Shown: positions 6,801 through 30,022 of the stretch, piece after piece
Numbering within the stretch: position 1 is the first letter of the stretch
Layout: each line of letters opens with the position of its first letter
IMG/VR virus record: IMGVR_UViG_3300042337_000070
Coordinates: 32,001-96,000 of that record
DNA from: a virus
DNA: 64,000 nucleotides
Strand: one strand, 5' to 3'
The notes under the pieces: model-generated
The model's database searches: none
The model's input: the letters and a program-made list of their open reading frames with translations, nothing else
What the model was told of the DNA's origin: nothing
Made by a program: the position numbers and the translations under genes

Positions 6801-9800
6801 TGTATCAGCACGGCTGTTGGCACTATTTGCCATAACTCCTGCATAGTTATTTGCTGCTGTGGTAGATGTGTTAGTATATGCTCTAGAGGTTACTAGATTA
6901 GATGCTACAATCGATTCGGCATATCCATTGGCAGAGTTAGCCATAAATCCTGCACGGTTATTTGCTGCTGTGGTTGATGTATCAGTATATGATCTAGCTG
7001 TAGTCAAATTAGCTGCTACAATCGTGCTTGCTATACTATTAGATGCATTTGCCATAACTCCTGCATAGTTATTGGCTGCTGTGGTAGATGTGTTAGTGTA
7101 TGCTCTTGATGTAACAAGATTGGATGCTACAATCGATTCGGCATATCCATTGGCACTATTGGACATAAAACCAGAATAGTTATTGGCTGCTGTGGTGGAT
7201 GTATTGGTATAATCTCTGGATATTACTAAGTTGGATGCTACAATAGATGCGGCAATACCATTAGCAGAATTTGCCATCACACCAGCATAGTTATTAGATG
7301 CCGCAGTAGATGTGTTAGTATATGCTCTAGAGGTTACTAAGTTAGCAGCAACAATGGATGCGGCAATACCATTAGCAGCATTTGCCATCACACCAGCATA
7401 TCCATTGGCAGAGTTAGCCATAGCACCGGCATAGTTATTTGCAGCCGTCAAGTCTGGGCTTAGTGATGAAGCATAGGCATTAGCAGAATTTGCCATAACA
7501 CCCGCATAGTTATTTGCGGATATACCTACTGTTGCTGCATAAGCATTAGCAGCATTTGCCATTACACCGGCATAATTGTTTGCTGATATTACACTTGCAC
7601 CCCCTCCAAGAGAAAGAGCATAGGCATTAGCAGCATTTGCCATGGCACCAGCATAGTTGTTGGCTGATGTTAGTCCTGTTGCTAACGTTGTTTGAGTAGC
7701 AAATGTAGCAGATACCCAGGAATTACCTGAGTTAGCCATAAATCCGGAATAGTTGTTAGCTGATGTTAGTCCTGTTGATACCAAAGACTGTGTAGCATAT
7801 GTAGCGGCCGCATAACCATTGGATGAGTTAGCCATAACACCTGCATAGTTATTTGCAGAAGTGGCGTTGAAAGCAACAGTAGTGATTGTAGCAAATGTGG
7901 CAGACGCCCAAGAATTACCTGAGTTAGCCATAAATCCAGAATAGTTGTTGGCTGCTATTACCGATGTATTAACGTATCCTCTAACACCAGAGTCGGCAGT
8001 AGCAAATGCACCATTAACAGAATTTGCCATTACACCAGCATAGTTATTGGATGCTATTACCGAGACGTTAGTGTATTCTCTAGCAATAACTAGATTGGCA
8101 GCCACTATAGTAGCAGCAATACCGTTGGCACTATTAGCCATAAATCCAGAATAGTTATTTGCTGCTTCGGTAGATGTGTTAACATACAATCTTGCGGCCG
8201 CAACCGTGGATTCTATATTAGCATTAGCAGCATTTGCCATTACACCGGCATAATTGTTCGCTGCTACTGTAGCACTATTGGTGTATGCTCTAGCAGTTAT
8301 TAAGTTGGCTGCAACAATAGATGCGGCGATGGCGTTTGCACTATTCGCCATGAAACCTGCACGATTATTGGCCGCCGCCGTAGATGTATTAGTATATTCT
8401 CTAGAAATAACTAAATTAGCTGCTACAATCGATTCAGCATATCCGTTGCTACTGTTAGACATAACACCGGCATATACGTTAGCAGATATAGTAGCACTAT
8501 TGGTGTATGCTCTAGAGGTTACTAGATTAGATGCTACAATCGATTCAGCATATCCATTAGCACTATTCACCATTACACCTGCACGGTTATTAGCAGATAT
8601 AGTAGCACTATTAGTATATGCTCTAGCAGTTGTTAGGTTTGATGCTACAATGGATTCAGCATATCCATTGGCAGAGTTAGCCATCACACCAGCATATCCG
8701 TTGCTGCTATTGGCCATAACACCAGCATATGCGTTTGCAGAAATTTCTAAAGTGTTTGCTTTTTCAAATGCTGCAATCGTTTTGATATCTGTGTTAAAAG
8801 CAAATACGTTCGCTGAGTTTGCTTTGTTAAAGGCAGCGTTAGTTACGTCATATACAGCATTGATGAGACTCAAATTGTTTTGTAGATTGGCGATGTTTGC
8901 TGATGAGTTACCGCTTAGAATCTGAACCAATGAATAAGCATCATTTGCTTTATCAAATGCCGCTTCGGTAAATGTTATGGTTGAATATGTCGCAACAGTA
9001 TATGAGTTTACTGCATTAGACATAAATCCGGAGTATGCATTTGCCGCTACTGTAGATGTATTAACATACTGTCTTAGAGTTGTTATTGATGATGTTAAAC
9101 TAACATTCACAGCATTAGCCATAGCACCGGCATAGTTATTGGCTGCCACTGTAGCACTATTAGTATATGCTCTGGCAGTTGTTAGATTAGATGCAACAAT
9201 GGACTCGGTATACAAGTTACCGCTATTAGCCATGAAACCAGCATAGTTATTCGCTGATATGGTAGCACTATTGGTGTATGCTCTAGCAGTTATTAAGTTG
9301 GCTGCAACAATAGATGAAGCAAATCCATTAGCAGCATTTGCCATGGCACCAGCATAGTTATTGGCTGCTATACCTGTTTCATGAGCAAGAGAATTTGCTG
9401 CATTGGCTTTTGCAAATGCTGCTGTTGTGTTAGTAGCGGTACCAGCGTAGAATGCCAAATCATAAGCACTGGCTGCTAATGTGTATCCTGAGTTGGCTTT
9501 ATCAAATGCGGCATTTGCCGTATTAAATACAGGTGAAAAATCGACAGAGATAACAACATTATTTGCTTTGTTAAAGGCGGCGTTAGCAATGACACCGGCG
9601 GCATTTGCACTGTTATGAACATTATTAGAAGAGTTGAAAGAAGCAACTGCTAAATCATAAGCAACATTCGCTTTTGAAAAAGATGCAGTTATGATTGTCG
9701 TTAACCCATTAGCAAATCCGAATGATGCGTTAGCAACACCAAAAGATGCATTAGTAACAGTGTATGAGGAGTTAGTAACTGTATAGACTACGTTTACTAC

Positions 9801-10103
9801 GTCATATACAGCATTCGTATTGTTTGCTGCCGAATTAGCCACAAGATATGCAGCATTTGCTTTGTTAAACGGTGCTGATATATCAACGATAGCATTTGCA
9901 ACAGAGATAGCAGGTGCAGTTAGTGTTCCTGCCGCATCGACACTGAATATGGTATTACCATTGACCATAAGTTTGAAAACTTTTGAGGCCGGGTCATAAT
10001 TTGTAGCGGTGACACTCAAACCTAATCCAGTGTAAACTCTAGTATCTTCGGTCCATGTTGAAGTTAGATTAGCAATACTTACGTTGCTTATGACATTACT
10101 CAT
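3852..10103 (-). CDS. Giant tail fibre/adhesin (2083 aa) with long repetitive coiled-coil stalk
   Basis: Ala/Asn repeats; YLPLSGGT, ITVDTYGRVT, SGLDADLLDG and YYxDP fibre motifs. Confidence 0.8.
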   Translation of the reverse strand: MSNVISNVSIANLTSTWTEDTRVYTGLGLSVTATNYDPASKVFKLMVNGNTIFSVDAAGTLTAPAISVANAIVDISAPFNKANAAYLVANSAANNTNAVYDVVNVVYTVTNSSYTVTNASFGVANASFGFANGLTTIITASFSKANVAYDLAVASFNSSNNVHNSANAAGVIANAAFNKANNVVISVDFSPVFNTANAAFDKANSGYTLAASAYDLAFYAGTATNTTAAFAKANAANSLAHETGIAANNYAGAMANAANGFASSIVAANLITARAYTNSATISANNYAGFMANSGNLYTESIVASNLTTARAYTNSATVAANNYAGAMANAVNVSLTSSITTLRQYVNTSTVAANAYSGFMSNAVNSYTVATYSTITFTEAAFDKANDAYSLVQILSGNSSANIANLQNNLSLINAVYDVTNAAFNKANSANVFAFNTDIKTIAAFEKANTLEISANAYAGVMANSSNGYAGVMANSANGYAESIVASNLTTARAYTNSATISANNRAGVMVNSANGYAESIVASNLVTSRAYTNSATISANVYAGVMSNSSNGYAESIVAANLVISREYTNTSTAAANNRAGFMANSANAIAASIVAANLITARAYTNSATVAANNYAGVMANAANANIESTVAAARLYVNTSTEAANNYSGFMANSANGIAATIVAANLVIAREYTNVSVIASNNYAGVMANSVNGAFATADSGVRGYVNTSVIAANNYSGFMANSGNSWASATFATITTVAFNATSANNYAGVMANSSNGYAAATYATQSLVSTGLTSANNYSGFMANSGNSWVSATFATQTTLATGLTSANNYAGAMANAANAYALSLGGGASVISANNYAGVMANAANAYAATVGISANNYAGVMANSANAYASSLSPDLTAANNYAGAMANSANGYAGVMANAANGIAASIVAANLVTSRAYTNTSTAASNNYAGVMANSANGIAASIVASNLVISRDYTNTSTTAANNYSGFMSNSANGYAESIVASNLVTSRAYTNTSTTAANNYAGVMANASNSIASTIVAANLTTARSYTDTSTTAANNRAGFMANSANGYAESIVASNLVTSRAYTNTSTTAANNYAGVMANSANSRADTKVATVTGSSGRITSTGGTTPVIDLASGVIADTNPRTGGISSITVDTYGRVTSVTGSAGYTTGSGYLPLSGGTMTGTLTLAGQVWSGNITWNNNINIGISGESSFDVGTGGQWGVWDTGSSNFWMRTNYNDHLRLVENGKNVYVYGGRLYTDTSQTYIHSGSIGSYATTGVAAGTGLTGGGTTGSLTLALSTVGAGQATYSSGISAITVDAYGRVTGVTGSANYLPLSGGTLTGRVIQSASGFGVAYDDTINNRVDSGFWETAYATTANGWPETTSTWYHLLASTHSNLSNYFSMQFAGSFFDSNALYYRATNGSGTTAWNKIWHAGNDGAASGLDADLLDGQQGSYYLNVGNMNAGTLAVIRGGTGVSTSTGSGSVVLSNSPTLVTPILGTPTSGNLSNCTFPTLNQNTTGSAGSVTATVTGTTGTNLVSGFMADNDSCRIRIGADATDAGWLEIATADNGTEPIYFRQYTGAFATVTRTLTLLDGSGNTTIPGNLTLSPANPTITSGSSYITIPNGLYVSGGTPYFQNQIQARGGIYNDTGVTLTLAGGTGGYTTVTGSCRSPIFYKSDDVAVRWTGNDFVLRGISPTIYLRDNDGSSNSAMIHVNGNTFYVLRGTGDTETWSQVNGQWPLVINLNTNGMTAGGTLNTVGNITAPNVYASRYYDNDDAAYYIDPAATSIVNQVNYALLSGQNVNTRDKVRVWSSSSYTIGMTSPFTFGAIANDYAMTFQMNNASTRGFWWGDEVHTSAQGAMSLSTDGKLTVAHSIRAGYGEGDTTVPGATYRLDISGIGHASTDFRAPSFVDSITTAYYLDPAGASNLNSATFAGTVSVPSGFTVRKQDNANEGGEFYVEKATNSTLAGNIIIDNITNSLRIFEGASPFRGVTLDISACGSPSTLIHSGNINSFVSRIRMQSMTISVINTFPALTSTYSGQMFMLIVNGTCFTPADSPSPFSVSGTTITWNGASVWSVNPGDVVTAIYSY
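6820..9370 (-). repeat. Intragenic tandem repeat, about 111 nt / 37 aa with 26 aa and 11 aa variants
   Basis: More than 20 copies of the ANN(Y/R)(A/S)G(V/F/A)MANS/A core; full unit ANNYAGVMANSANGYAESIVASNLVTSRAYTNTSTTA. Confidence 0.9.
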
Positions 10104-16120: not shown

Positions 16121-16711
16121 TCAAGATTGTTTCATTATATGCGATTTATGTTCGACAGTCAAGAATATTTCGACTGACTTCTTTAGGTCCTCAATTGTTC
16201 CTTCGTTATGAATGATGAAGTCAACTGGCTCTTTCCTCCATGCAGTTTCCGACACATGCATCTTAGAAAGTTCTTCCTCAGTGGGTGAAGGGTCTCGACG
16301 CACCCAAACTATCTTACCGCCGACACTCCGGATAAACTCGATCTCATTCGGGAATCTACAATCAGAGATAACAACATCTTCATATCCCATCATGCGTTTC
16401 TCTAATGCAGCAATCCAGATGTTATCTGCGATGCCATGGCGACATGCCTCTGTTCCCATACGCTGTAGAATAAGACGAGGGGTTACCTCGTATCCCATCT
16501 TATTTGACCACCAAGGATCAACCTTCTCACGAAAGGTCCTTGAGGCATTCGAGTCACCTTCTAGAAGACCCCGAGGCCACATAAAGATTGTGGCAACGGC
16601 ATCTTTCAAAGCATCGGCAAATGCAAACTTGTGATACTGATGTTCCCTTACGAGAACATCAGCCACGGTGCTTTTGCCGGACCCAATGTATCCGACAATC
16701 CCAATAATCAT
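16121..16711 (-). CDS. gp1: Deoxynucleoside monophosphate kinase (gp1-like)
   Basis: IIGIVGYIGSGKST P-loop, FADALKD, TPRLILQRMGTE, ISDCRFPNE; start at 16711 (ATGA overlap). Confidence 0.92.
   Translation of the reverse strand: MIIGIVGYIGSGKSTVADVLVREHQYHKFAFADALKDAVATIFMWPRGLLEGDSNASRTFREKVDPWWSNKMGYEVTPRLILQRMGTEACRHGIADNIWIAALEKRMMGYEDVVISDCRFPNEIEFIRSVGGKIVWVRRDPSPTEEELSKMHVSETAWRKEPVDFIIHNEGTIEDLKKSVEIFLTVEHKSHIMKQS
16134..16162 (-). promoter_or_regulatory. Sigma70-type promoter for the gp45 operon
   Basis: TTGACT-17bp-TATAAT. Confidence 0.65.
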
Positions 16712-17538
16712 CTTAAGTTTCCTGACAAACTTGCAACTGCGGGGAGGTCTCCTTGGAACCCGTAGGTTCCAACGTGAGTGGTTTTCATCCAAGGACACAA
16801 CCAAACCTTAAGTCCAATTGCTCGTGCATTCTGACAGAACATATAATCTTCTGACAGATAACGATGTGACTGTGGGTCGATCACGGTATCAAAGTAAGCA
16901 TGAATGTATCGTGAACCATCAAAGTTTGCCTGACCAACATGGTCTGGCTTATAATGAAGGTGTGGAAACTCTTCGGCATACTTATCAAACACTTCACGCT
17001 TGACCATCATGAAACCTGTGCCGATTTCCATAACCTCTACAGGTTCGCTGATCTTGAATGATGTTGTGCCTGGGACTGGGTTGAATACAAAGTCACCTGT
17101 TACTCCATCTAGTTCACCAGGATTAAAACCTTCCTTCAACTTGATACCTTCATTTGTCTTGATGGAGTTACGAGTAACTGCGTTACAGATGTTGCTCCAG
17201 TTAATAGACTTCTTTGGATATGGTCCACCAGCAATGTCAAGATCAAGAGCTAGGAGAGCAAGGATGTCCTGAGGGTTGTATTGAATGTCTGAGTCAATGA
17301 ATAGAAGATGTGTGCATCCCGAACGAAGAAACTCATCAACAAGGTAGTTTCTAGCACGGGTGATTAGAGATTCATTAAAGATAAATGAGAAGCGGCATTC
17401 GATACCATACTGAATACAGGTTGCCTGTAGATCGAGGCAAGCCTTTGCATAAAGGCCGAAGCACTGTCCACCGTAACATGGTGTAGCGACAAAGATTTTC
17501 TTTTGTCTCAATTCATCACTTGAAATTTTTATTTCCAT
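16708..17538 (-). CDS. Glycosyltransferase-like protein (GT-A)
   Basis: FVATPCYGG, ESLITRARN, LLFIDSDI, GTGFM, YLSEDYMFC. Confidence 0.8.
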   Translation of the reverse strand: MEIKISSDELRQKKIFVATPCYGGQCFGLYAKACLDLQATCIQYGIECRFSFIFNESLITRARNYLVDEFLRSGCTHLLFIDSDIQYNPQDILALLALDLDIAGGPYPKKSINWSNICNAVTRNSIKTNEGIKLKEGFNPGELDGVTGDFVFNPVPGTTSFKISEPVEVMEIGTGFMMVKREVFDKYAEEFPHLHYKPDHVGQANFDGSRYIHAYFDTVIDPQSHRYLSEDYMFCQNARAIGLKVWLCPWMKTTHVGTYGFQGDLPAVASLSGNLR

Positions 17539-17608
17539 ATTGTTCTCCATAAGCGAATAGCGCAGGGACAAAAGTCCCCACGCTATTATATAGTAAAGTT
17601 TTTAGAAA

Positions 17609-18035: not shown

Positions 18036-19295
18036 TCAGAAAGCGATCTCTTCTCCAACAACCTTCTGCTCTTCGGTAGCAGGAGCGACAGTCGGATCGA
18101 TTGTTTCGTCAACCTTCTTATACAGTTCCATAAAAGCGTTCTTAGTATCGATATCAAAGCGATTCAGACACAGCTCAATCGACTTGGCACGATTCTGATT
18201 GAAAATGGCATATGCCTCGCAGATATGAACCAGACGACGAGTGGAGATGATTTCGGACAAAGCACCTTCATAAAAGGACTTGCGAATAACATCAGCCCAG
18301 GTCACCAGCTTATCAACAAAGTCACCAGCATCAATACCAGAAGCACCGAGAACATTCTTTAGAATCTTAGTCTCGGTCTTGACCGGCGGATACTCCTGCT
18401 CCATTGTAATAGAGAAACGCTCCAGAAAGGCTTCGTTCATAACATTGGTGCCGATGAAGCGACCGTCGTCAGAACCCTTACCCTTAGTGTTAGCGGTCGC
18501 AATGACATTGAAACCAGACTCAGGAGTAACCAGTCGATTGATCTTTTTGAGAAACACCGACTTGCCCTCAAGGACAGGCTGCAAACACATCAGCTTGTTA
18601 GAACCGAGGTCAACCTCGTCAAGCAGAAGAATTGCACCACGCTGCATAGCGATAATAACAGGACCGTCCTGCCAGACAGTATGACCATCAACAAGGCGGA
18701 AACCACCGATCAAATCGTCTTCGTCAGTCTCAATAGTAACATTGACACGAACACACTCACGCTTTTCCGCAGCGCAAACCTGTTCAATCATCATCGTCTT
18801 ACCGTTACCAGAAAGACCAGTGATATAAGCCGGATAAAACTTCTTGGACTTGATAATAGCACGAACGTCGGCAAAGTTACCGAACGGAACGTAGCCAGAA
18901 GCCTTAGAAGGAACCAGCGACACTTCACTTGAAGTAGAAGTGGAAGGAGCAGACATAGCAACGGTCGGAGCCATAGCCACTACGCTATCGACAACAGGAA
19001 TATCCGACTGAATATTCGCAGGAGCGACCTTATTGGTAGCAGTCTTCTTAGGAGCCTTGACCTTAGTGACAGCGGGTGCCATAGCAACATTAACGGCAGC
19101 ACCATGCTCGGGAATAGCATACAGACCACGACCCACACGGCGGGAAGCGTCGTTCAAGAACCAGTGAGGCCAGGACAAATTATATTTTTCGACAACACTC
19201 TTGATTTGGGCACGGGACACTTCACGGACAGCACCAAATTCAAAACGCACCTTGTCAAGGAACTCGGTGCGGTTAACGGAAGAAGACTTAGCCAT
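18036..19295 (-). CDS. cobS: CobS-like MoxR AAA+ ATPase
   Basis: GLSGNGKT Walker A, LLLDEVD Walker B, TANTKGKGSDDGRFIGTNVMNEAFLERF. Confidence 0.92.
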   Translation of the reverse strand: MAKSSSVNRTEFLDKVRFEFGAVREVSRAQIKSVVEKYNLSWPHWFLNDASRRVGRGLYAIPEHGAAVNVAMAPAVTKVKAPKKTATNKVAPANIQSDIPVVDSVVAMAPTVAMSAPSTSTSSEVSLVPSKASGYVPFGNFADVRAIIKSKKFYPAYITGLSGNGKTMMIEQVCAAEKRECVRVNVTIETDEDDLIGGFRLVDGHTVWQDGPVIIAMQRGAILLLDEVDLGSNKLMCLQPVLEGKSVFLKKINRLVTPESGFNVIATANTKGKGSDDGRFIGTNVMNEAFLERFSITMEQEYPPVKTETKILKNVLGASGIDAGDFVDKLVTWADVIRKSFYEGALSEIISTRRLVHICEAYAIFNQNRAKSIELCLNRFDIDTKNAFMELYKKVDETIDPTVAPATEEQKVVGEEIAF

Positions 19296-19331
19296 ACGAT
19301 GTTTTCCTTTCACGATTTCAAATTATGACAT

Positions 19332-19384: not shown

Positions 19385-21616
19385 CTACGCTACCTTCTTT
19401 GCTTTCCCAGTGACGTGGTCAATGAAATTGCGAAGAAGGACACGGTTGACAGCCTTTCTAGCGGCGAACTTGGAGAACGCTTTGGCCATATGCTTGGTAG
19501 ACTTGTTGGTATCGATTTCCAGATTATTATCTTCGAATCTAAGAGCCCTAGAATCGATCACATAATAATCATCGTATCCTTCACTCTTGACAGGATAGAA
19601 CTTGTTCTCCTTCCAGAACTTGGAGACCTTCTGGAGATAATCATAGTTGCCTTCAACACCAAAACGACGGGTGAAAGTTCCCCAAGATTCAGCGAAAAGA
19701 AAGAAACCGATTAGATTACAGTTCGTCTTCTCCTTGAGCAAACGAAGATACTGGACAGTGTTGGTAGCACGATTAGACGGACCCCAACCACGAGGATCGA
19801 TCTCATAAGTTTTACCAGTCTCCTTGTCATTGTAATAAAACTGCTTTTTACGAAGCGAATTTTTCGTCGTATCATGCACAAGACCAGAACAAACATTCGA
19901 CTCACCGTCAGTGAGAATAATGGTATTGACAACCTCCAGCTTATACTTTGCACGGAAATCATTGATGATCTTAGGTGCAACATAAATTGCCTCATTCAAA
20001 GGCGTGCCAGAGAGACCTTCACAGTTGAGACGATGACCATTACCCATAGCCCAGAGAAAAGCCATAGCGTCATTCAATTCAGTAAGATTCATCTTAGATG
20101 AAAGGAACTGACGCATAGTGAGATAACCAAATGCCATGCTATTTTCGACACTGCTGTGATCCCACGGAGACTTAGGATCATAATCATCGTCGGAATCCTT
20201 GAACGCATACACTTCAAACGGCACTTGAATCTGCTTGCAGAAGAGAACCAGAGTAAAGAGCTGCGACATGGTGTGTCGAAGATTATAGTCCATTGATCCT
20301 GACCAATCAAGAAACATGACAAAGCCATGGTTCTTACCCTCAGGGATAACAGACAGACGACGGAAGATATCATCGCTGTGCTTATAAGCATGGAGTTTGT
20401 TGGTATCGATCATACCAGTCTTAGCAGTTTGAATGCGAGAATAAATCTCGGCACTCTTACGCTGCTCAAACTCCTTGACGAGGAAAGAGATAGTCTCCTT
20501 TTCTTTCTGACGCCATTCGGTAAACTCACGACGGGCGTTTTCGAAAACCTCAACAGTCAGGCTGCGACTATAACGAGGATTAACATTCGTTATTTCTTTA
20601 CGCCAGTCATTCAGGACTCTTTTATAATCATGGACATGCTTGGCATAATTGAACTGAGGCATATTGACATAAACATAATCAACATTGGCATTCTGCACCA
20701 GTTCTTCACGCTTTTCTTCCCAAGCACGATCGGTCTGTGACTCGGGAACATTGTCCGTTACCTTACCCTGGGCACCAGCGCCAGAGCCAGACGAATTACC
20801 ATTTGAACCAAGATCACCCTGACCACGGGTTACACCACCCTCCGAATCGTCGTCGTTACCCTCGCCTTCACCCTCATCGGAGTCGGACTTGGAACCTTCA
20901 TTAGAATCGAAATCATCGGCAGAGTCGCCATCGCTATCCCAATCAAAACCATCATCACCTTCACCCTCCTCAGAATCACCGACACCAATATCGATATGCA
21001 TATCATTTTCAATCTGAGACTTGCAGAAACGATAAATCTGTTCGACAACATCGACAGTTTCATCGAACTTTTCAAGATTCTCAACCTTTTTGAGAAAGGA
21101 CCGCTCTTCGGGAGTAAACTCAATAGATAGATTGACATTACCGCCCTTGAAATAGATATTCAAGCGGTCGATGAAATTCATCGAATTGATATCACGACCC
21201 TTCGTGCCGAAAAAGTCACGTTCAATCAATTCCTGATAACCAAGAAGATAGTTTTTACGAAGACCAGGATAACGGCGCTTCTGGCGCTTATCGATACGGG
21301 CATCTTCGATAACATTCAAAAAGCCAGCGACGGTTCGCATAAGACGAGAATCAACATCGTCACCAAAGATACGCTTCGCAATACCCTGATAAGCAGTCTT
21401 ATACTCTTCGGCAGAAGGAGTATCGATAGCATGACCAGTCTCATGACCGATAAGCAAATGCTCCAGATCAGTAGAGATGTTCTGCCATACGGGAAGCATG
21501 AGAACACGATTCTTTAGGTCGAACATAGCGGTCTTGATACCAGACTGGTGCTGAACCGTAATGTTTTCAGTAGCAAGCAGTTTAGCAAGCAGAGAATTAG
21601 AGTTTACCGTTTGCAT
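19385..21616 (-). CDS. CobT-like protein: N-terminal zincin (HETGH), acidic linker, vWA domain
   Basis: LAKLLATENITV, GHETGH, EDARI, DWSGSM MIDAS, LTDGE. Confidence 0.85.
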   Translation of the reverse strand: MQTVNSNSLLAKLLATENITVQHQSGIKTAMFDLKNRVLMLPVWQNISTDLEHLLIGHETGHAIDTPSAEEYKTAYQGIAKRIFGDDVDSRLMRTVAGFLNVIEDARIDKRQKRRYPGLRKNYLLGYQELIERDFFGTKGRDINSMNFIDRLNIYFKGGNVNLSIEFTPEERSFLKKVENLEKFDETVDVVEQIYRFCKSQIENDMHIDIGVGDSEEGEGDDGFDWDSDGDSADDFDSNEGSKSDSDEGEGEGNDDDSEGGVTRGQGDLGSNGNSSGSGAGAQGKVTDNVPESQTDRAWEEKREELVQNANVDYVYVNMPQFNYAKHVHDYKRVLNDWRKEITNVNPRYSRSLTVEVFENARREFTEWRQKEKETISFLVKEFEQRKSAEIYSRIQTAKTGMIDTNKLHAYKHSDDIFRRLSVIPEGKNHGFVMFLDWSGSMDYNLRHTMSQLFTLVLFCKQIQVPFEVYAFKDSDDDYDPKSPWDHSSVENSMAFGYLTMRQFLSSKMNLTELNDAMAFLWAMGNGHRLNCEGLSGTPLNEAIYVAPKIINDFRAKYKLEVVNTIILTDGESNVCSGLVHDTTKNSLRKKQFYYNDKETGKTYEIDPRGWGPSNRATNTVQYLRLLKEKTNCNLIGFFLFAESWGTFTRRFGVEGNYDYLQKVSKFWKENKFYPVKSEGYDDYYVIDSRALRFEDNNLEIDTNKSTKHMAKAFSKFAARKAVNRVLLRNFIDHVTGKAKKVA

Positions 21617-21678: not shown

Positions 21679-21706
21679 AAAAAAAGAGGGGTAGTTAACC
21701 CCTCTT
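21679..21706 (-). terminator. Intrinsic terminator
   Basis: AAGAGGGG-TTAACTA-CCCCTC followed by T7. Confidence 0.8.
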
Positions 21707-22206: not shown

Positions 22207-23829
22207 TTACTTAACCTTTCTGAAAACGAAAACCGGTTCATATTTGAGCATGATCTTTTTACCATTATTCTCAATCTGACAAAAGTTTTTCATTTTACCT
22301 TCTAGGATTGTTTCTCTCTCTTCCTCACCGGTTAGTGGGTTGATTGTAACTGTCTCGCCTGTTTCGACCATTCGATTACCACCAGGCATCTGAGCAAGTG
22401 CCATCTTTAGAGTTGTAACATACTCCATACCTAGTTCTTTTAAAATGTTACAAGAATCTTCTTCTAGAGGCAGAAGATTGTTATCAAATGCAGCATCAGC
22501 AATATTCCAGAGAAGATAACGATCCTTTCTCAAATATCTAACGGCAGTCTCTAGAGTAGGTCTTAGAAATCCATCAACCCAATCTGCATACTGAGAAAAC
22601 TTATGACAAGATTGTTCGGGATCATCAGAGTAAACTTCCTTAGCAAAATAAGGAGGTGAGGTAAACACTAGATCGAGTTTACCTTCATATTTCTGAAATC
22701 CTGGTTGAAACTGTGCCATTTCAGATCCACACTGAAAAATTTCATATGTGTGTGACTTCGGGAACAGACTTCCAGATTCTCTAACCTGTTCATTGAAGAA
22801 ATCGGCCACTTCATGATATTTGGTTCGACCCGAATGGGTGTTATGATCGGTGTTAGGATCTGTACCTATGTAATGTATGTTGCGTTTATCATCCACTGAC
22901 ATAGCACCAACGATGCGGCCTGCCCATCCTGAGGAAGGATCCCATATATTGATCTGGTCCTGATCCCTGATGTGATCGGTAAAACGCTCATAAAGATAAC
23001 GAGCGGTGAGAGGTGGAAAGTTGACCGCATACTGACAGAAGGACACACGGAATGATTTGAGACCCATAGGGAACACTTTCTGTCCACGCTTAAAGAGCCG
23101 AATGTTGTATTTCATCGATCTATTAGGATTGACATTTGTGATGGTTCTTTCTGCTTGCTTGATAGCAAAGGTGTAGTCAACAATAACGTTCTGTTTTTTA
23201 CCCAAGGTGGCAGAGTACCCAGTGTATTGCTTGTCCTCTTTGACAGGACAAAACCAATAGTCCCACTCATCAGATTTCAATTCTTCCATTTTAGCAACAA
23301 ACTGTTCGGATGATTCGACAGAGAATGTTGAGTTACCAATCTTAACAACATCTCCGAATGAGATTGGTGTTGAGTGATGATAGAATGAGTCTCTTTTGAA
23401 ATGCCTTGAAGCATATGTAATAAAGGTTTCTAGATATGCGTCATCGGCGAAATAGTCATAGATCGACTTAGACTTACCCTTTGTCGAATATGAAATGCCT
23501 GTCTTCATCATGGTCGGGAACCACTGATTGACAGCATTACCTACTATAGAGGTATTACGAATAACATCTTTCTCACCCGTGCGAAGATCGACTGTCTCAA
23601 ACTCATGCACAGGGAAGCCAACCATCTTTTGAAAGTTATCAATGATACCTTCTTTATTAAATCCTACTCTTGGAGGAATGCCTTTGTTATCCCATAGATT
23701 GACTACGGTTTTTCGTAGGTCGATCACCCATTGACGAAATTCAACCTCATTCATCCATAACAGTTCCTCAAATGTCTTATTGACATGCGAGTTTAGGAGT
23801 TCATCGTTTCTTTCATAGAACCATTGCAT
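22207..23829 (-). CDS. Large SAM-dependent amino-methyltransferase (N4-C/N6-A type)
   Basis: WDPSSGWAGR SAM-binding motif, YIGTDPN, DLVFTSPPYF catalytic motif. Confidence 0.85.
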   Translation of the reverse strand: MQWFYERNDELLNSHVNKTFEELLWMNEVEFRQWVIDLRKTVVNLWDNKGIPPRVGFNKEGIIDNFQKMVGFPVHEFETVDLRTGEKDVIRNTSIVGNAVNQWFPTMMKTGISYSTKGKSKSIYDYFADDAYLETFITYASRHFKRDSFYHHSTPISFGDVVKIGNSTFSVESSEQFVAKMEELKSDEWDYWFCPVKEDKQYTGYSATLGKKQNVIVDYTFAIKQAERTITNVNPNRSMKYNIRLFKRGQKVFPMGLKSFRVSFCQYAVNFPPLTARYLYERFTDHIRDQDQINIWDPSSGWAGRIVGAMSVDDKRNIHYIGTDPNTDHNTHSGRTKYHEVADFFNEQVRESGSLFPKSHTYEIFQCGSEMAQFQPGFQKYEGKLDLVFTSPPYFAKEVYSDDPEQSCHKFSQYADWVDGFLRPTLETAVRYLRKDRYLLWNIADAAFDNNLLPLEEDSCNILKELGMEYVTTLKMALAQMPGGNRMVETGETVTINPLTGEEERETILEGKMKNFCQIENNGKKIMLKYEPVFVFRKVK

Positions 23830-24799
23830 TCAACATTCCTTCAAACTGTTCGTAATACTGATTAGGTGTTTTGATACGTTCAAACAATTTTTCTTTAACA
23901 GCATCAAACTTAGAGTTACTACTATCATACTTCAATTCATTAAATTTGTCAACATATTCTTGATACGATCCTATCCGTTGCCAATTACTGGCAACGAAGT
24001 TATCAGAAGAGTCATAATCTTGCCAGACAAACGGATAAACACCACATGATACCGCTTCAATATACCTAGCCGTTGTTGCTTTGTTGTCCATCCAGTTAAA
24101 GCAAAGAGTCGATTTAGCGGATAGTAGATAAGGAATAAGATCAATCATCTTCATCCACTTCTCATCTCTCTTAAAACCGTGAAAGCGTCCAATGAAAATG
24201 GCATTCATATTATTCTTATAAATCTCTTTTAGAATAGTGTGTCGTTGGTCACCTGATAGTTTACCATCAACGGTCTTACGCTTGTCTGATCCCCAATAGA
24301 TAAAGTCAACGAAACGGTCAGTCTCAAACAACCGTGTCTGATCCTTGATAAAGTGATACTTCATACCGTGAATGTTGCCGTCAAAGTCACATTCATCAAT
24401 CGTTTGATATGAGATATCGAGTCCAGGAAACACTTTTGTGCGATACAGTTCCTCATCATCTCGTCTATCGGAACGTAGAATGATAACTTTTTTACCATTT
24501 ATGAAAGGCTTGATCAGGTCTAAATGTTCATTTGATCTTTTAAGATCAAGTGTATGAATTGCCCCAGGGATCCAATATGTAAACTCTGCCTCAGAAGGAA
24601 TGATGATAATGTCCGCATTCTTGATAGCATCTATATCACGCTTGGGTTTCATGTTAAAACCAAAGTTGTAGTAATACCATTCATGCTCAGAATGCCTATT
24701 AACATACATTCTAAGCAATTCGAAGAACGAATCCATAATGTGGTGTAAAGGTTCGACATAGTTTGCCGAACTTCGAAGTCGAGCTATACAAATCTTCAT
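23813..24799 (-). CDS. T4 beta-glucosyltransferase-like DNA glycosyltransferase (GT-B)
   Basis: MKICIA start; DFIYWGS...SGDQR, TARYIEAV...VWQDYD and QEYVDKFNELK align by eye with BGT DVIYGGS..SGQR, TLRVWETM...IDEEFD and AELIDRVNELK. Confidence 0.6.
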   Translation of the reverse strand: MKICIARLRSSANYVEPLHHIMDSFFELLRMYVNRHSEHEWYYYNFGFNMKPKRDIDAIKNADIIIIPSEAEFTYWIPGAIHTLDLKRSNEHLDLIKPFINGKKVIILRSDRRDDEELYRTKVFPGLDISYQTIDECDFDGNIHGMKYHFIKDQTRLFETDRFVDFIYWGSDKRKTVDGKLSGDQRHTILKEIYKNNMNAIFIGRFHGFKRDEKWMKMIDLIPYLLSAKSTLCFNWMDNKATTARYIEAVSCGVYPFVWQDYDSSDNFVASNWQRIGSYQEYVDKFNELKYDSSNSKFDAVKEKLFERIKTPNQYYEQFEGMLNAMVL

Positions 24800-25602
24800 C
24801 CTGCTACATTCCATACTAAACACGGGTCTTTTCGGGAGTGTCCTCCGTGATATTCTTTCATCACATGCCACACTTTTGCGTCATAGGTAGGTGCAGAAGG
24901 GTATGGCGTCACATGTTCTTTCTTCACTGGCTTATCAAACTTGTAAGGCGAACGGTGATAGATTGCTCGCCCAATTTCTCTGGGTGTCATTGTATGACCT
25001 ACAGAGACGACATGAACCTCTGCATCAGGCCAGGCTAGCTGCAATGCTCTTGTGAGAGTGCCGCTTGATCCTACGGACCATACTTCTCGGGGAGAAATGG
25101 GTAGAGAACGAGCAACACGAATGAGACAAGCAATAGAAGTAGGATGTTCAACACCAATCGGCAAGAGGGATCTTGTGTCAGGTGATTCTGCAACATAGTC
25201 TTTTGCACGCTTTTGGGTAACAGGAAGCATTCCATTAGGTACCCAATGATAAGTTGCTCCAAGTTCAATGCCTCGTTGTTGGTATTCATGCAGTTTATCC
25301 ATTGATCTTTCTGCCATGAAGATCACGGCTTTTTTGTTATAGCGATTACAAATAAAGGGGAGAGAGATTTGTGCATATCCGGTAGCAGGTGATGATCCAT
25401 ACACCCACTCTTGTATGTTTGCATACTCAGGTGCATGACCAATCAGATAGTCACCTGCTCTTGCTTTAGACCCAACAGAAAGAAGGTCATCCCGAACAAC
25501 GTGATAACCTTCATGCTCTGTTATTACTGGTGGGGGATTGGGGTCAACCCAATTGCCGATAAGGCTTAGATAGTCTTCTGCTGTTTCATTGAATAATGTC
25601 AT
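24796..25602 (-). CDS. PLP-dependent enzyme (fold type II, ACC deaminase/Trp synthase beta-like)
   Basis: VVRDDL...GSKAR Schiff-base Lys, SVGSSGTL phosphate loop, TYDAK, LVWNVA. Confidence 0.82.
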   Translation of the reverse strand: MTLFNETAEDYLSLIGNWVDPNPPPVITEHEGYHVVRDDLLSVGSKARAGDYLIGHAPEYANIQEWVYGSSPATGYAQISLPFICNRYNKKAVIFMAERSMDKLHEYQQRGIELGATYHWVPNGMLPVTQKRAKDYVAESPDTRSLLPIGVEHPTSIACLIRVARSLPISPREVWSVGSSGTLTRALQLAWPDAEVHVVSVGHTMTPREIGRAIYHRSPYKFDKPVKKEHVTPYPSAPTYDAKVWHVMKEYHGGHSRKDPCLVWNVAG

Positions 25603-25775
25603 TTCCACCGTTCTTTAATTTCATTAACACGATCAACCATAAAGGATTCTAGAATCTCACGGACGTTATCATATTTAGGATTCGTTTTAACGTTATGCAA
25701 ATCTAGAGTGTATGCTGTCAGGATAATCTGTTCATGTGAATAATGATGCGTCTTGTGTGGATTAGTTTTTTCCAT
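25599..25775 (-). CDS. Hypothetical protein (58 aa)
   Basis: Manual translation MEKTNPHKTHHYSHEQIILTAYTLDLHN...KERWK; ATGA overlap with the PLP gene. Confidence 0.55.
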   Translation of the reverse strand: MEKTNPHKTHHYSHEQIILTAYTLDLHNVKTNPKYDNVREILESFMVDRVNEIKERWK

Positions 25776-25873: not shown

Positions 25874-26137
25874 TTACACTCCTGCTAATGTTTTGCTAAT
25901 CATACCAACAAGGTATATCATAACAACAACAACCTGAACTGTGATGATTGACCACTTTCTCCACATAAGAGCAACGACCAACCATCCCAGATTACCGATT
26001 ATAGACACATACACATTTAGTGGATGCACATTCCATGCGGTTAGTGCTACACCTACTATCAATACTGTGGTAGATGCCCATTCAATATAAAATTCAACTT
26101 GCTTCGTCACTTTCGTTTCCCATCTGATATAAACCAT
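25874..26137 (-). CDS. Small three-TM membrane protein (half-PnuC-like)
   Basis: EW...IVGVAL...PLNVYVSIIGNLGW pattern. Confidence 0.6.
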   Translation of the reverse strand: MVYIRWETKVTKQVEFYIEWASTTVLIVGVALTAWNVHPLNVYVSIIGNLGWLVVALMWRKWSIITVQVVVVMIYLVGMISKTLAGV

Positions 26138-26511: not shown

Positions 26512-28233
26512 TCATTCATCTTTTGTCAAGACAGAAAAGTTTTTTACCTTTTCAAACTTAAGGATTCTTTGAAAACGATCTAACATGGTATCCTTGTGAG
26601 AGATAACGAAGATATTGGTTCCTTTGTCTCCCATCTCCCACATAATTTTAATGAACTCGTCAATACCAGTTGTATCCATTGCTCTATCCAAGATTTCATC
26701 AAACACTAAGATGTTGACGTTTACCGAGTTTTTAAGTTTAGCAATCTGACGCCATGTTAGGAGAATCGCAAGGTCAATTCGCAGTTTCTCGCCTTCACTG
26801 AAATTGTGGTAACTAAACTCGTCTCTGTAACGTGACTTGATACTTTCCTCGAAAGATTCGTTGATATTGAAATTGACGAAGAAACCAAGTTTCGCCAGAT
26901 ACTTGTTAATGTGCTTGTTGATAATAGGAAGATACTGCTTGATGATCTTCGTTTTAATGCCACCGTCTTTAAGGAGTGTGCTGGCCAGGTCGATGTATTG
27001 ACGCTCATCTAAAAAGGTCTTCTTCTCTTCTTCGAGGGTGGAAAGATCATGTTCGACCTCGGAGAGTTGTCGTTCTGACTCTTGGATAGTTTTGTCTGAT
27101 GTTGCGAAGTTTTCAATCTGCTCCACAACTTGTGAAAGATTATGACGCAGATTGTTATAGGAAGACTTAGAAGACGAAACTTCCAACCGAAGTTTGTTGA
27201 TTTGGACGACGATTTTTTCAATGGCATCAATCTCTAATAAGACAGAATCAATTTGTTGTTCAACCTTATTTAGTCCTTCACTAAGTTCATGAATTTTAGC
27301 ATGACCATCATCAACCATGCTCTTAGCAAACTCTGGGTTGATTTCTTGACGACAGGTTGGACAATTACCACTTTCCGCAAAGAAGTCAATATCTTTAACA
27401 TGCTTGTCACGATTGGCTTCCATCTTAGCACGAAAACCTAGTAGTTTTGAATGCTTGGACTTTAGAGGTGACAAATCGATGTTCTGATCTAACACAGTTT
27501 CGAGAGCGGATTCATGTTGTAGAACGATGCTCTTTTGTGTGTTTAGTTGATCTAATAAAGATGCTTCCTTACTTTTCAATTCAGCCAACTTCTCTTCGCT
27601 ATTTGCTCTAAGAGAGGCAAGCGTTCTTTCAATGTAAGACTTATTGTCAACCTTACTAGAAAGTTGAACACGATTACGTTCCAAGTTCTCACGATTGACC
27701 TGTAGTTTGTTTTTTACAACAGTTGACATAGCAGTGAAGATTTGAATGTCCAACAAATCTTCAATCACAGATCGTCTATCGTTTGCAGATAGCTGCATGA
27801 ATGGAACAAACGATGCTGAACCAAGAATGACAACCTGCGTAAAAGATTTGTAGTTCATACGAAGAATGTTCTTCTCCAAATGCTCTTGATAATCTTTAGC
27901 CGCAGCATCTTGATTGATCATAACACCATCGATATAGATTTGAAAGACATTAGGCTTGACACCACGAATGACTTTATATCGATGGTTGTTAATGGTAAAC
28001 TCTATTTCGGTCACACAGTTCTTACCGTTAATTGAGTTAACTACGTTACCTTTGTTCACCTTACGAAATGGCTTACCAAAAAGCACAAAGCACAGGGCGT
28101 CAAGCACTGTTGACTTCCCTGCGCCGTTGTGACCCATAATCAACGTGTTCTTATGGGAGTCTAGTTCAATTTCAGTAAACACATTTCCAGATGATAGGAA
28201 GTTTTTATATCTTATCACATGGAATGTAATCAT
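26512..28233 (-). CDS. gp46: Recombination endonuclease ATPase subunit gp46 (Rad50/SbcC-like)
   Basis: GHNGAGKST, CPTC hook, FSEGEK signature, LVFDE, ISH. Confidence 0.97.
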   Translation of the reverse strand: MITFHVIRYKNFLSSGNVFTEIELDSHKNTLIMGHNGAGKSTVLDALCFVLFGKPFRKVNKGNVVNSINGKNCVTEIEFTINNHRYKVIRGVKPNVFQIYIDGVMINQDAAAKDYQEHLEKNILRMNYKSFTQVVILGSASFVPFMQLSANDRRSVIEDLLDIQIFTAMSTVVKNKLQVNRENLERNRVQLSSKVDNKSYIERTLASLRANSEEKLAELKSKEASLLDQLNTQKSIVLQHESALETVLDQNIDLSPLKSKHSKLLGFRAKMEANRDKHVKDIDFFAESGNCPTCRQEINPEFAKSMVDDGHAKIHELSEGLNKVEQQIDSVLLEIDAIEKIVVQINKLRLEVSSSKSSYNNLRHNLSQVVEQIENFATSDKTIQESERQLSEVEHDLSTLEEEKKTFLDERQYIDLASTLLKDGGIKTKIIKQYLPIINKHINKYLAKLGFFVNFNINESFEESIKSRYRDEFSYHNFSEGEKLRIDLAILLTWRQIAKLKNSVNVNILVFDEILDRAMDTTGIDEFIKIMWEMGDKGTNIFVISHKDTMLDRFQRILKFEKVKNFSVLTKDE

Positions 28234-28234
28234 A

Positions 28235-30022
28235 TCAATATTCTCTTGTTGGCTTCTTCCCTACTAATAGATCCTTGATTTCTTGACCTGTTAGAGTTTC
28301 ATATTCTAGCAGACCTTGTGCTAGTGTGTCAAGGTCTTTTCTCTTTTCGGTTAGAATCTTCTTTGCCATGGTATATCCTTCCTCGACGAGGCGCTTGATT
28401 TCCATATCGACAATCTTTTGTGTCTCTTCGGCAATCTTAGCAGAATGAAATACATCAGCATTTGGTTCTGTATAAGCCATACGTCCTAGAAGTGGTGAGA
28501 AACCTAGCTGAGTAACCATTGCTCTTGCGAGTTTAGTTGCTTGCTGAATATCTCCTGCGGCGCCAGATGTAACTCTATGTTCACCAAAAATGATTTCTTC
28601 TGCTACACGTCCACCCATAGCCATAGCAAGTTGAGCAATCATTTCTTCGTAAGACTGTGAGATTTGGTCACGATCTGGAATTGATTGAACCATACCCAAT
28701 GCTCGTCCACGTGGTATGATAGTTGCCTTATGAATTGGGATCGAGCCAGTCATGTTGATAGAAACGAGAGCATGACCACCTTCATGATATGCTGTCATCT
28801 TCTTTTCATCATCAGTCATAAGAAGCGTTCTGTGTTCGGCGCCCATCATGATCTTATCACGGGCATCTTCAAATTCTTGAAGTGTAACAATCCGCTTTGA
28901 ACGGCGAGCGGCAAGCAATGCTGCCTCATTAACAAGATTTGCTAGATCGGCGCCAGAAAAGCCAGGTGTTCCCTTTGCGACAGTTCTAATATCAACATCA
29001 GGTCCAATTGGAACTTTGCGTGTGTGAACTTTTAGAATCTTCTCACGACCAACAAAGTCTGGATTAGGAACTTGAACCTGTCTATCGAAACGACCTGGAC
29101 GAGTTAGGGCTTTATCTAGAACATCTACACGATTGGTAGCAGCAATGACGATAACACCTTCGTTATCATTGAATCCGTCCATTTCTACTAGCATTGCGTT
29201 TAGAGTTTGATCACGTTCGTCATTACCACCCATACCTGTAGCTCTTGATCGACCAACGGCGTCAATCTCATCAATGAAGACAATGCAAGGTGCATTCTTC
29301 TTTGCTTGATCAAACATATCTCTAACTCTAGATGCACCAACACCAACAAACATTTCTACGAAGTCTGATCCAGAAATACTAAAGAAAGGAACACCTGCTT
29401 CACCAGCAACTGCCCTAGCTAGAAGAGTTTTACCTGTGCCAGGAGGACCAACGAGCAATACACCCTTTGGAATTTTACCACCAAGACGTTCAAACTTTTG
29501 TGGATTTTGTAAAAACTCTACAACTTCCTGCAAGTCTTCTTTTGCTTGATCAACACCAGCAACATCTTCAAATGTCTTTAGTGTAGAAGACTCAGTAAGC
29601 AGTTTTGCTTTTGACTTACCCATACCCATCATTCCACCAGGACCACCGGCCGAACGGCGAGATAGCCACACCCATAGACCAAAGAATAGAAATACTGGTA
29701 GAAGATTAATAAGTAGATTTGTCCAGAATGATGCTTCTGTGTTATCAGCCTTAACAGTAATATTAACCTTGTGTTCTTCTAACTTAGGTAGAAGAGAAGA
29801 AAGGCCAGCAACGGTAGTTCTAAACTCTCTGTTGTCTGCGTTAAAGTGTCCTGTTAGCTGATTTCCTGCTACATAAACATCATGAACGTTGTTGCGTTCA
29901 ACCTGACCGAGAAAGTCGGAATAACTAATTTCATTTGTTAGTTTGTGTTCGCCTGGCATAGCCATCCAATACAGGGCTACGGCCACAGCGAAAAAGATTA
30001 TAATAGGTAACGTTTTCTTCAT
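28235..30022 (-). CDS. ftsH: ATP-dependent zinc metalloprotease FtsH
   Basis: Two TM helices, [11 protein letters not shown] pore loop, IDEID, RPGRFDR, HEGGH, AEE, GAAGD. Confidence 0.97.

Follow-up and report, generated by a model that had tools for sequence, protein, structure and literature searches.

The 64-kb window analyzed here (bases 32001-96000 of the 107.9-kb IMG/VR viral record IMGVR_UViG_3300042337_000070, estimated to be 65% complete) carries a cassette of three consecutive enzyme genes: PLP268 (24796..25602), coding for a compact fold-type-II (PALP) pyridoxal phosphate (PLP) enzyme of 268 aa, GT328 (23813..24799), coding for a GT-B glycosyltransferase (GT) of 328 aa, and MT540 (22207..23829), coding for a two-domain protein of 540 aa with an S-adenosylmethionine (SAM)-dependent amino-methyltransferase fold. 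All three lie on the minus strand, as do nearly all genes of the window. The source, an uncultured marine myophage of the T4-like type, is related to Pelagibacter phage HTVC008M (Kyanoviridae), which displays a matching gene order around the cassette. On balance, and with some reservation, sequence comparisons lead us to favor reading this cassette as a modular DNA-modification island, in which the PLP enzyme would be functionally tied to the methyltransferase. Because a PLP enzyme of a DNA-acting type, a GT resembling T4 beta-glucosyltransferase (BGT) and a DNA-methylase-type enzyme are associated here without the usual base-preparing genes, the product of the cassette is probably a previously undescribed DNA decoration.

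The initial annotation had described four genes chained by overlaps, the first being a 58-aa open reading frame (ORF), s58 (25599..25775, minus strand), translationally coupled to PLP268, and both the ORFs and their junctions read as it gave them. The s58/PLP268 and PLP268/GT328 junctions each consist of an ATGA motif (s58 stop TGA 25601-25599 and PLP268 start ATG 25602-25600; PLP268 stop TGA 24798-24796 and GT328 start ATG 24799-24797), and GT328 and MT540 overlap by 17 nt (23813-23829, MT540 start ATG 23829-23827, GT328 stop TGA 23815-23813). The true starts of PLP268 and GT328 are these overlap ATGs, as opposed to those of the longer GTG ORFs listed mechanically, since the lengths of their homologues fit the ATGs. 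As a whole, the 3.6-kb stretch had no blastn match (distant mode) among cultured phages, and an NCBIfam search yielded no family for any of the four proteins.

By sequence, PLP268 is a homologue of the M6 gp52 / ViI gp226 family, which acts on DNA-attached amino acids. Work on the purified proteins identified M6 gp52 and ViI gp226 as PLP proteins, active in the decarboxylation of C-alpha-glycinyl-thymidine and O-seryl-thymidine within DNA, and named K36 as the lysine of M6 gp52 (PMC8989533). PLP268 and M6 gp52 match the same PHROG (phrog_7093, "threonine dehydratase", at 6e-35 and 2e-159, respectively), and a phmmer search of the window's own record with M6 gp52 retrieved the PLP268 ORF at 2.8e-6. 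In a profile alignment of the PLP268 family with M6 gp52 (hhalign, prob 97.8, E 8e-13, 228 columns, 27% identity), K46 of PLP268 is placed opposite K36, the Schiff-base lysine. Beyond this lysine, the characterized enzymes (PMC8989533, PMC5889632) share with PLP268 a PALP fold, a similar size (278 vs. 268 aa), a C-terminal signature (PFPSxPxYDxKAW...FWNVG) and a phage genome in which they are encoded among DNA-metabolism genes. The assignment as a fold-II PLP enzyme, already made in the initial annotation, is thus supported by the PHROG match, by an invariant K46 (within RDDLxxGSKxR) and GSSGT loop among 25 PLP268 homologues, and by PF00291 matches above cut-off in relatives (M6 gp52, R6L gp1 and the Mae-JY30 homologue). 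We take RDDLxxGSKxR to be a motif similar to that of 1-aminocyclopropane-1-carboxylate (ACC) deaminase and DcyD. Nothing useful was obtained from the PDB, either by phmmer with PLP268 or by hmmsearch with the PLP profile. The two groups differ in their sequences (only ~27% identity) and, above all, in their partners: the M6 and ViI pathways include a dUMP hydroxymethylase, a 5-hydroxymethyldeoxyuridine (5-hmdU) DNA kinase, an amino-acid:DNA transferase and a radical SAM isomerase, none of which was found with PLP268, whose invariable partner is instead an SPPY methyltransferase-fold enzyme and/or a GT.

GT328 is BGT-like as a structural statement, as judged from a predicted model (AlphaFold2 on 43 homologues, pLDDT 94.6, pTM 0.91). 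The first 14 Foldseek matches of this model are the two T4 DNA glucosyltransferases, the nearest solved structure being BGT, with a two-domain GT-B/BGT topology over the whole chain. The initial annotation had noted by eye a likeness between the C-terminal half of GT328 and BGT; a weak sequence match is indeed found there (hhalign, prob 20%, E 1e-3, C-terminal half only), but structurally the resemblance spans the entire protein. In this low-probability alignment, the invariant R245 and E248 of GT328 are opposite the RVWE segment of BGT, whose Arg and Glu are presumably UDP-sugar binding residues. T4 BGT (PDB 1qkj, 1j39, 1bgt) and its alpha counterpart AGT share with GT328 a full-length GT-B fold, a comparable size (351 vs. 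328 aa) and an origin in T4-like phages, and possibly the C-terminal nucleotide-sugar-binding segment placed opposite it in that alignment. Membership of the BGT family by sequence does not hold, however, with similarity to BGT being marginal, no Pfam, PHROG or NCBIfam family detected for GT328 and no phmmer match in the PDB. Nor does a 5-hydroxymethylcytosine (hmC) acceptor hold: the acceptor of GT328 cannot be that of the T4 enzyme, since neither a dCMP hydroxymethylase nor an hmC pathway of the dCTPase type was found. Finally, and unlike T4 BGT, relatives of GT328 pair either with PLP and MT540 genes or with a gene for a DruA-like protein.

MT540 combines a conserved N-terminal domain (residues 1 to ~265) with a class-I SAM-dependent amino-methyltransferase fold (~270-540), in which motif I (DPSSGWAGR, 297-305) precedes motif IV (TSPPY, 390-394). 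This order, together with the Rossmann methyltransferase domain of the predicted structure (AlphaFold2, pLDDT 86.7), agrees with the initial description of a 540-aa SPPY-type SAM enzyme. Among viral proteins, the best structural matches of MT540 are annotated N4-cytosine or DNA methylases (E 3e-13 to 3e-9), and many MT540 homologues carry a precomputed PF01555 match. Whole-model Foldseek and VIA searches, whose lists were filled by the methyltransferase domain, gave no assignment for the N-terminal domain, and comparison with the protein atlas provided no family for it (scores <=0.82). A tblastn search with MT540 yielded partial matches only (aa 224-489) in Twort-like Staphylococcus, Vibrio and Bacteroides phages, and the full two-domain form was found in no cultured phage.

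To evaluate how these genes are associated in nature, we fetched IMG/VR loci by separate seeding with the PLP, GT and methyltransferase proteins. The PLP-seeded loci included 67 unique PLP sequences, 60 of which were informative (i.e., had enough downstream DNA), and in 58 of these 60 a partner gene (MT540 and/or GT) followed downstream at a distance of at most 3.6 kb, in the same orientation. Most of these partners were MT540 alone (43 loci), the others being a BGT-like GT with MT540 (3), a BGT-like GT (3), a 457-aa GT-B designated GT457 (7) or an Anp1-like GT-A designated GTA290 (2). When the MT540- and GT-seeded loci were counted as well (97 unique PLP sequences in total), the first partner overlapped the PLP gene or was at most 60 nt away in 55 of 88 cases. 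Three genomes (G003, G004 and G006) have the PLP gene paired with a GT only, in a UDG ... RNase H context, and encode MT540 ~40 kb away. Conversely, no PLP gene accompanied MT540 in 32 of the 59 loci having room upstream, or anywhere in five large MT540 records, which include a 100% complete one with terminal repeats (G010, 167.8 kb) and one estimated at 86% (G009). Likewise, the BGT-like GT occurred without PLP or MT540 in 59 of 80 GT-seeded loci, among them HTVC008M, the only cultured phage with a GT328 homologue. Overall, the dependency is one-way, with PLP needing a methyltransferase or GT partner and not the reverse, and the three genes are separable modules: MT540 is a self-sufficient enzyme, occurring alone in complete phage genomes, and PLP268 is a dependent accessory of an MT540-type enzyme or of a GT, the GT-only pairings being found in MT540-bearing genomes.

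The complete trio (PLP, BGT-like GT and MT540) was detected in 17 of the 80 GT-seeded loci. Its occurrences span at least three diverged lineages, in which identity to the cassette decreases from 74% to 45% for the GT and down to ~30% for the methyltransferase. Two close relatives (L033 and L034, 79-84% protein identity for MT540) are collinear with the window except for positions 23830-25600, i.e., PLP and GT, which are missing as a block. PLP and GT therefore form one indel unit, and GT328 entered together with PLP268. In both relatives s58 is directly upstream of the methyltransferase gene, hence s58, which has no match in Pfam, PHROG or NCBIfam, is a conserved neighbor and not a part of the module. 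The same distribution bears on the central idea of that annotation, a DNA hypermodification pathway in which three enzymes build one adduct: DNA hypermodification gains support from a PLP family that decarboxylates DNA-attached amino acids, but a single joint adduct is not obligatory, given that MT540 and the GT each occur without the others and that L033 and L034 lack PLP and GT.

GT-only loci are distinctive in another respect, since 54 of these 59 carry a DruA-like gene (380 aa) in the position of MT540. This gene is found in none of the 21 PLP-containing GT-seeded loci, making the two sets of partners mutually exclusive. In HTVC008M (L001:6007-8717, i.e., KC465899 84548-87258), the BGT-like GT is followed by the DruA-like 380-aa protein (Pfam DruA, 5.5e-18), and 54 further such loci lie among L122-L191. 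Between the two genes, HTVC008M encodes a 175-aa JmjC-like cupin, also recovered by phmmer in 3 loci. These loci thus couple a DNA-GT-like enzyme to a phage relative of a Druantia defense protein. The DruA-like protein was considered as a relative of MT540 and ruled out (hhalign prob 0.5), as were the 359-375-aa ORFs following MT540 in L024 and L028 as GT homologues.

The strong evidence that PLP and methyltransferase work together comes from unrelated siphophages, in which a PLP domain is inserted in the methyltransferase fold itself. In Erythrobacter phages, the inserted domain separates motif I from motif IV in a methyltransferase of the same type as MT540. Gp1 of phage vB_EliS_R6L (807+ aa) is thus organized as ParB, N6_N4 motif I (330-370), PALP (396-623) and a "DFVFSCPPYGDLEVYSDDP" segment (654-705), the latter corresponding to the motif-IV signature of MT540 (matching MT540 386-406). 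In Microcystis phage Mae-JY30, methyltransferase and PLP are two distinct genes, the former (294 aa, of the same type and with motif I before motif IV) lying immediately upstream of the latter. Together with ZS04, these phages share with the cassette the PLP family (36-39% identity), the methyltransferase signature (S/C)PPY...EVYSDDP, the order of the two motifs and a physical or translational coupling of methyltransferase and PLP. They differ in that the fusion phages have a ParB domain in place of the MT540 N-terminal domain, and in that no BGT-like GT is found in R6L, ZS04 or Mae-JY30, whose products carry just the annotation "DNA modification methylase" with no reported chemistry.

We next considered the enzymes that usually prepare a base for such modifications. 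Profiles PF00303 (ThyA-family hydroxymethylase), PF18724 and PF18748 had no match in the window's own record (G000), in G003, G004 and G006, or in G001, a 174.5-kb, 100% complete relative with the same cassette (91% PLP identity), which encodes ThyX only and has no ThyA-family match. These searches covered the amino-acid:DNA transferase ADDT, for which the positive control worked on M6, and the 5-hmdU kinase HMUDK. The lack of the usual partners for hmC or hydroxymethyluracil, initially pointed out within the window, thus extends beyond it for the ThyA-family, ADDT and HMUDK enzymes, and includes the complete genome of G001. The initial annotation had also called for a genome search for a dCMP/dUMP hydroxymethylase or a TET/JBP enzyme: the hydroxymethylase was not found, and the Tet_JBP search was negative too, albeit run without a positive control, as no control genome matched. 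In the window's own (65% complete) record, phmmer searches detected no JmjC protein, Asp/Asn hydroxylase or 2-oxoglutarate (2OG) oxygenase, and no match to M6 gp51, gp53 or gp54, T4 gp42 or BGT.

If the cassette is a DNA-modification island, MT540 is the candidate source of the alpha-amino-acid side chain for a gp52-type decarboxylase, as the only enzyme present that could supply it. It is thus tempting to speculate that MT540 would transfer the 3-amino-3-carboxypropyl (acp) group of SAM, instead of or besides the methyl, to the exocyclic amine of a flipped base, that PLP268 would then decarboxylate this acp group to an aminopropyl, and that GT328 (or other GTs) might finally add a sugar to the aminopropyl product or to another acceptor. 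A precedent exists in enzymes of the TYW2 type, in which the amino-acid moiety of SAM is passed to a nucleobase by a Rossmann methyltransferase fold, yielding what would be a substrate for a gp52-type decarboxylase. RNA acp transferases such as TYW2 differ from MT540 in acting on RNA, and no sequence or structure match to them was obtained. The specific acp-to-aminopropyl chemistry is a tentative proposal that we regard as doubtful. The complete scheme, with MT540 as the first DNA acp transferase, PLP268 generating an N-aminopropyl base and BGT-like or other GTs decorating it further, is if anything unlikely to be correct in this form, and it is weakest at the GT step and as to which base is modified.

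A number of observations weigh against a PLP-methyltransferase module acting on DNA, the case for which is comparative throughout. For MT540, the Pfam N6_N4_Mtase score is just under the cut-off of this DNA-methylase family (25.4 vs. 26.7 bits, profile positions 2-61 only), and the best matches among solved structures are tRNA N2-methylguanosine (m2G) methyltransferases. No differentially conserved position was detected between MT540 proteins that have a PLP gene next to them and those that lack one, the motifs being identical, and if MT540 is an ordinary methyltransferase, the substrate of PLP268 is left unexplained. PLP268 and gp52 are distant homologues (27% over 228 columns) and need not catalyze the same reaction. 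As to GT328, its family occurs without PLP or MT540 in HTVC008M-type phages, and an aminopropyl amine would be an unusual GT acceptor. Finally, the slot occupied by the cassette is a hotspot that can also hold genes for dCMP deaminase, PAPS reductase, aspartate carbamoyltransferase, other methyltransferases and Asp/Asn hydroxylases, and the adjacency of the three genes may therefore be partly positional.

These observations bear first on the idea that the cassette is a set of three independent anti-restriction or accessory genes sharing a hypervariable slot, with MT540 an orphan N6-methyladenine (m6A) or N4-methylcytosine (m4C) DNA methyltransferase, GT328 acting on DNA hydroxylated by another enzyme or on a non-DNA target, and PLP268 belonging to a separate metabolism. 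This idea would fit the complete genomes that have MT540 by itself, the 59 loci (HTVC008M included) that have the GT without PLP or MT540, the many unrelated cargo genes of the slot, the lack of sequence differences between PLP-linked and unlinked MT540, and a candidate promoter of its own upstream of the methyltransferase gene. Three independent genes would not be expected, however, to yield MT540 or a GT after 58 of 60 informative PLP genes, with the first partner so often overlapping or nearly so, nor a PALP domain inside the same methyltransferase type in unrelated siphophages, nor PLP-GT pairs that lie in a UDG ... RNase H context and still keep MT540 ~40 kb away. As the PLP family is in addition known to act on DNA, we consider full independence of the three genes unlikely.

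We find it more improbable still that the module modifies RNA (tRNA or rRNA) or protein, with MT540 a Trm11/TrmN-like enzyme or an acp transferase whose product is elaborated by PLP268 and GT328. Known modifications of tRNA include acp and glycosyl groups, and the sub-threshold Pfam match leaves room for a target other than DNA. Yet the matches to tRNA m2G methyltransferases exceed those to generic methyltransferases by under 2 Z units and are limited to the Rossmann core (~180 residues), and the best viral matches, with far better E-values, are DNA methylases. A DNA target is also suggested by the ParB-type DNA-binding domain of the fused relatives, by the PLP family and nearest GT structures, all DNA-acting, and by the location of the genes in a DNA replication/recombination module. 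Equally improbable is an action of PLP268 on the cofactor, altering the SAM or S-adenosylhomocysteine bound by the methyltransferase and so changing the transferred group or relieving product inhibition: the obligatory pairing and the domain insertion do put a PLP site beside the SAM site, and RDDLxxGSKxR recalls ACC deaminase and DcyD, but the characterized relatives act on DNA-borne amino acids rather than free SAM, PLP also pairs with GTs away from the methyltransferase gene, and an altered cofactor without a change in MT540 sequence would not redirect the transferred group.

The modular island favored here occupies a plastic slot between gp46 (SbcC-like, 26512-28233, upstream) and a CobT-like "peptidase" gene (19385-21616, downstream), itself followed by CobS (18036-19313). 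A full-length FtsH-like AAA protease is encoded directly upstream of gp46 (28235-30022, minus strand; FtsH_ext, AAA and Peptidase_M41, 7e-64) and is 77-85% identical in the closest relatives. Between gp46 and s58, an 87-aa DUF6552 protein (25874-26137, minus strand, 1.4e-15) is kept in close relatives whether PLP and GT are present or not. Two candidate transcription signals were identified on the minus strand, both as consensus matches, with the total of promoter-like sites in the region not above that of shuffled sequences. The first is a sigma-70-like promoter match (TTGACA-17-TATGAT, 11/12; 23924..23952) in the 3' end of the GT328 gene, ~95 nt upstream of the MT540 start, which is possibly a promoter of MT540's own. 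The second is a terminator-like hairpin (9-bp stem and T run, 21684..21706), located after MT540 and two small ORFs and before the CobT-like gene, and likely the end of the transcription unit.

Relatives can carry, between PLP and MT540, a gene for a PAPS-reductase-family protein (7e-42), dCMP deaminase, aspartate carbamoyltransferase or a small class-I methyltransferase (L249:4720-5469, L216:4844-5308, L218:4771-5754, L234:4765-5316), and a PAPS-reductase-family gene is likewise found near the methyltransferase-PALP fusion of R6L. The PLP gene of relatives is often flanked by genes for Asp/Asn beta-hydroxylase-like, JmjC-like or 2OG-Fe(II) oxygenase proteins (L027:1092-4219, L029:287-727, L216:2926-4020). 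Elsewhere in the window, the minus strand encodes a GT2-family protein (157-912, Glycos_transf_2 6e-12), by far the largest ORF of the window (2083 aa, 3852-10103) and an Anp1-like GT-A (16708..17571, phrog_1574 1.2e-64, Anp1 6.8e-5). In other marine myophages (L013 and L016), the gene right after PLP encodes a member of the last family, and the GTA290 protein of L013 retrieves the window's homologue at 5e-113 by phmmer, making this GT-A a possible further contributor to the modification.

Hypermodification involving a gp52-type PLP enzyme or a BGT-type GT is known, and the novelty here would be a methyltransferase-fold entry step. Searches of the literature retrieved neither a PLP-methyltransferase DNA modification nor acp-DNA, nor any relevant ACC-deaminase-type viral genes; a survey of pelagimyophages ascribes phage GTs to the modification of host O-antigen, with no mention of the genes described here. 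Hydroxymethyl-pyrimidines, 7-deazaguanines and Mom-type adenine chemistry are the known enzymatic starting points for bulky modifications of phage DNA. In this cassette and its relatives, a protein from the one PLP family with demonstrated activity on DNA is instead wired to a methyltransferase-fold enzyme, through adjacency, reversed adjacency or domain insertion, and this link is found in hundreds of ocean phage contigs without a hydroxymethyl route. Should the cassette produce only m6A or m4C next to unrelated cargo, the finding would be an ordinary one. If a new adduct is made, it would represent a new entry point to DNA hypermodification, could provide a SAM-dependent enzyme installing amine handles on DNA, and would bear on restriction evasion by abundant marine phages. 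Were the acp route in particular to prove true, hypermodification would be possible without any hydroxymethyl-pyrimidine, and such a chemistry would be widespread among marine T4-like phages.

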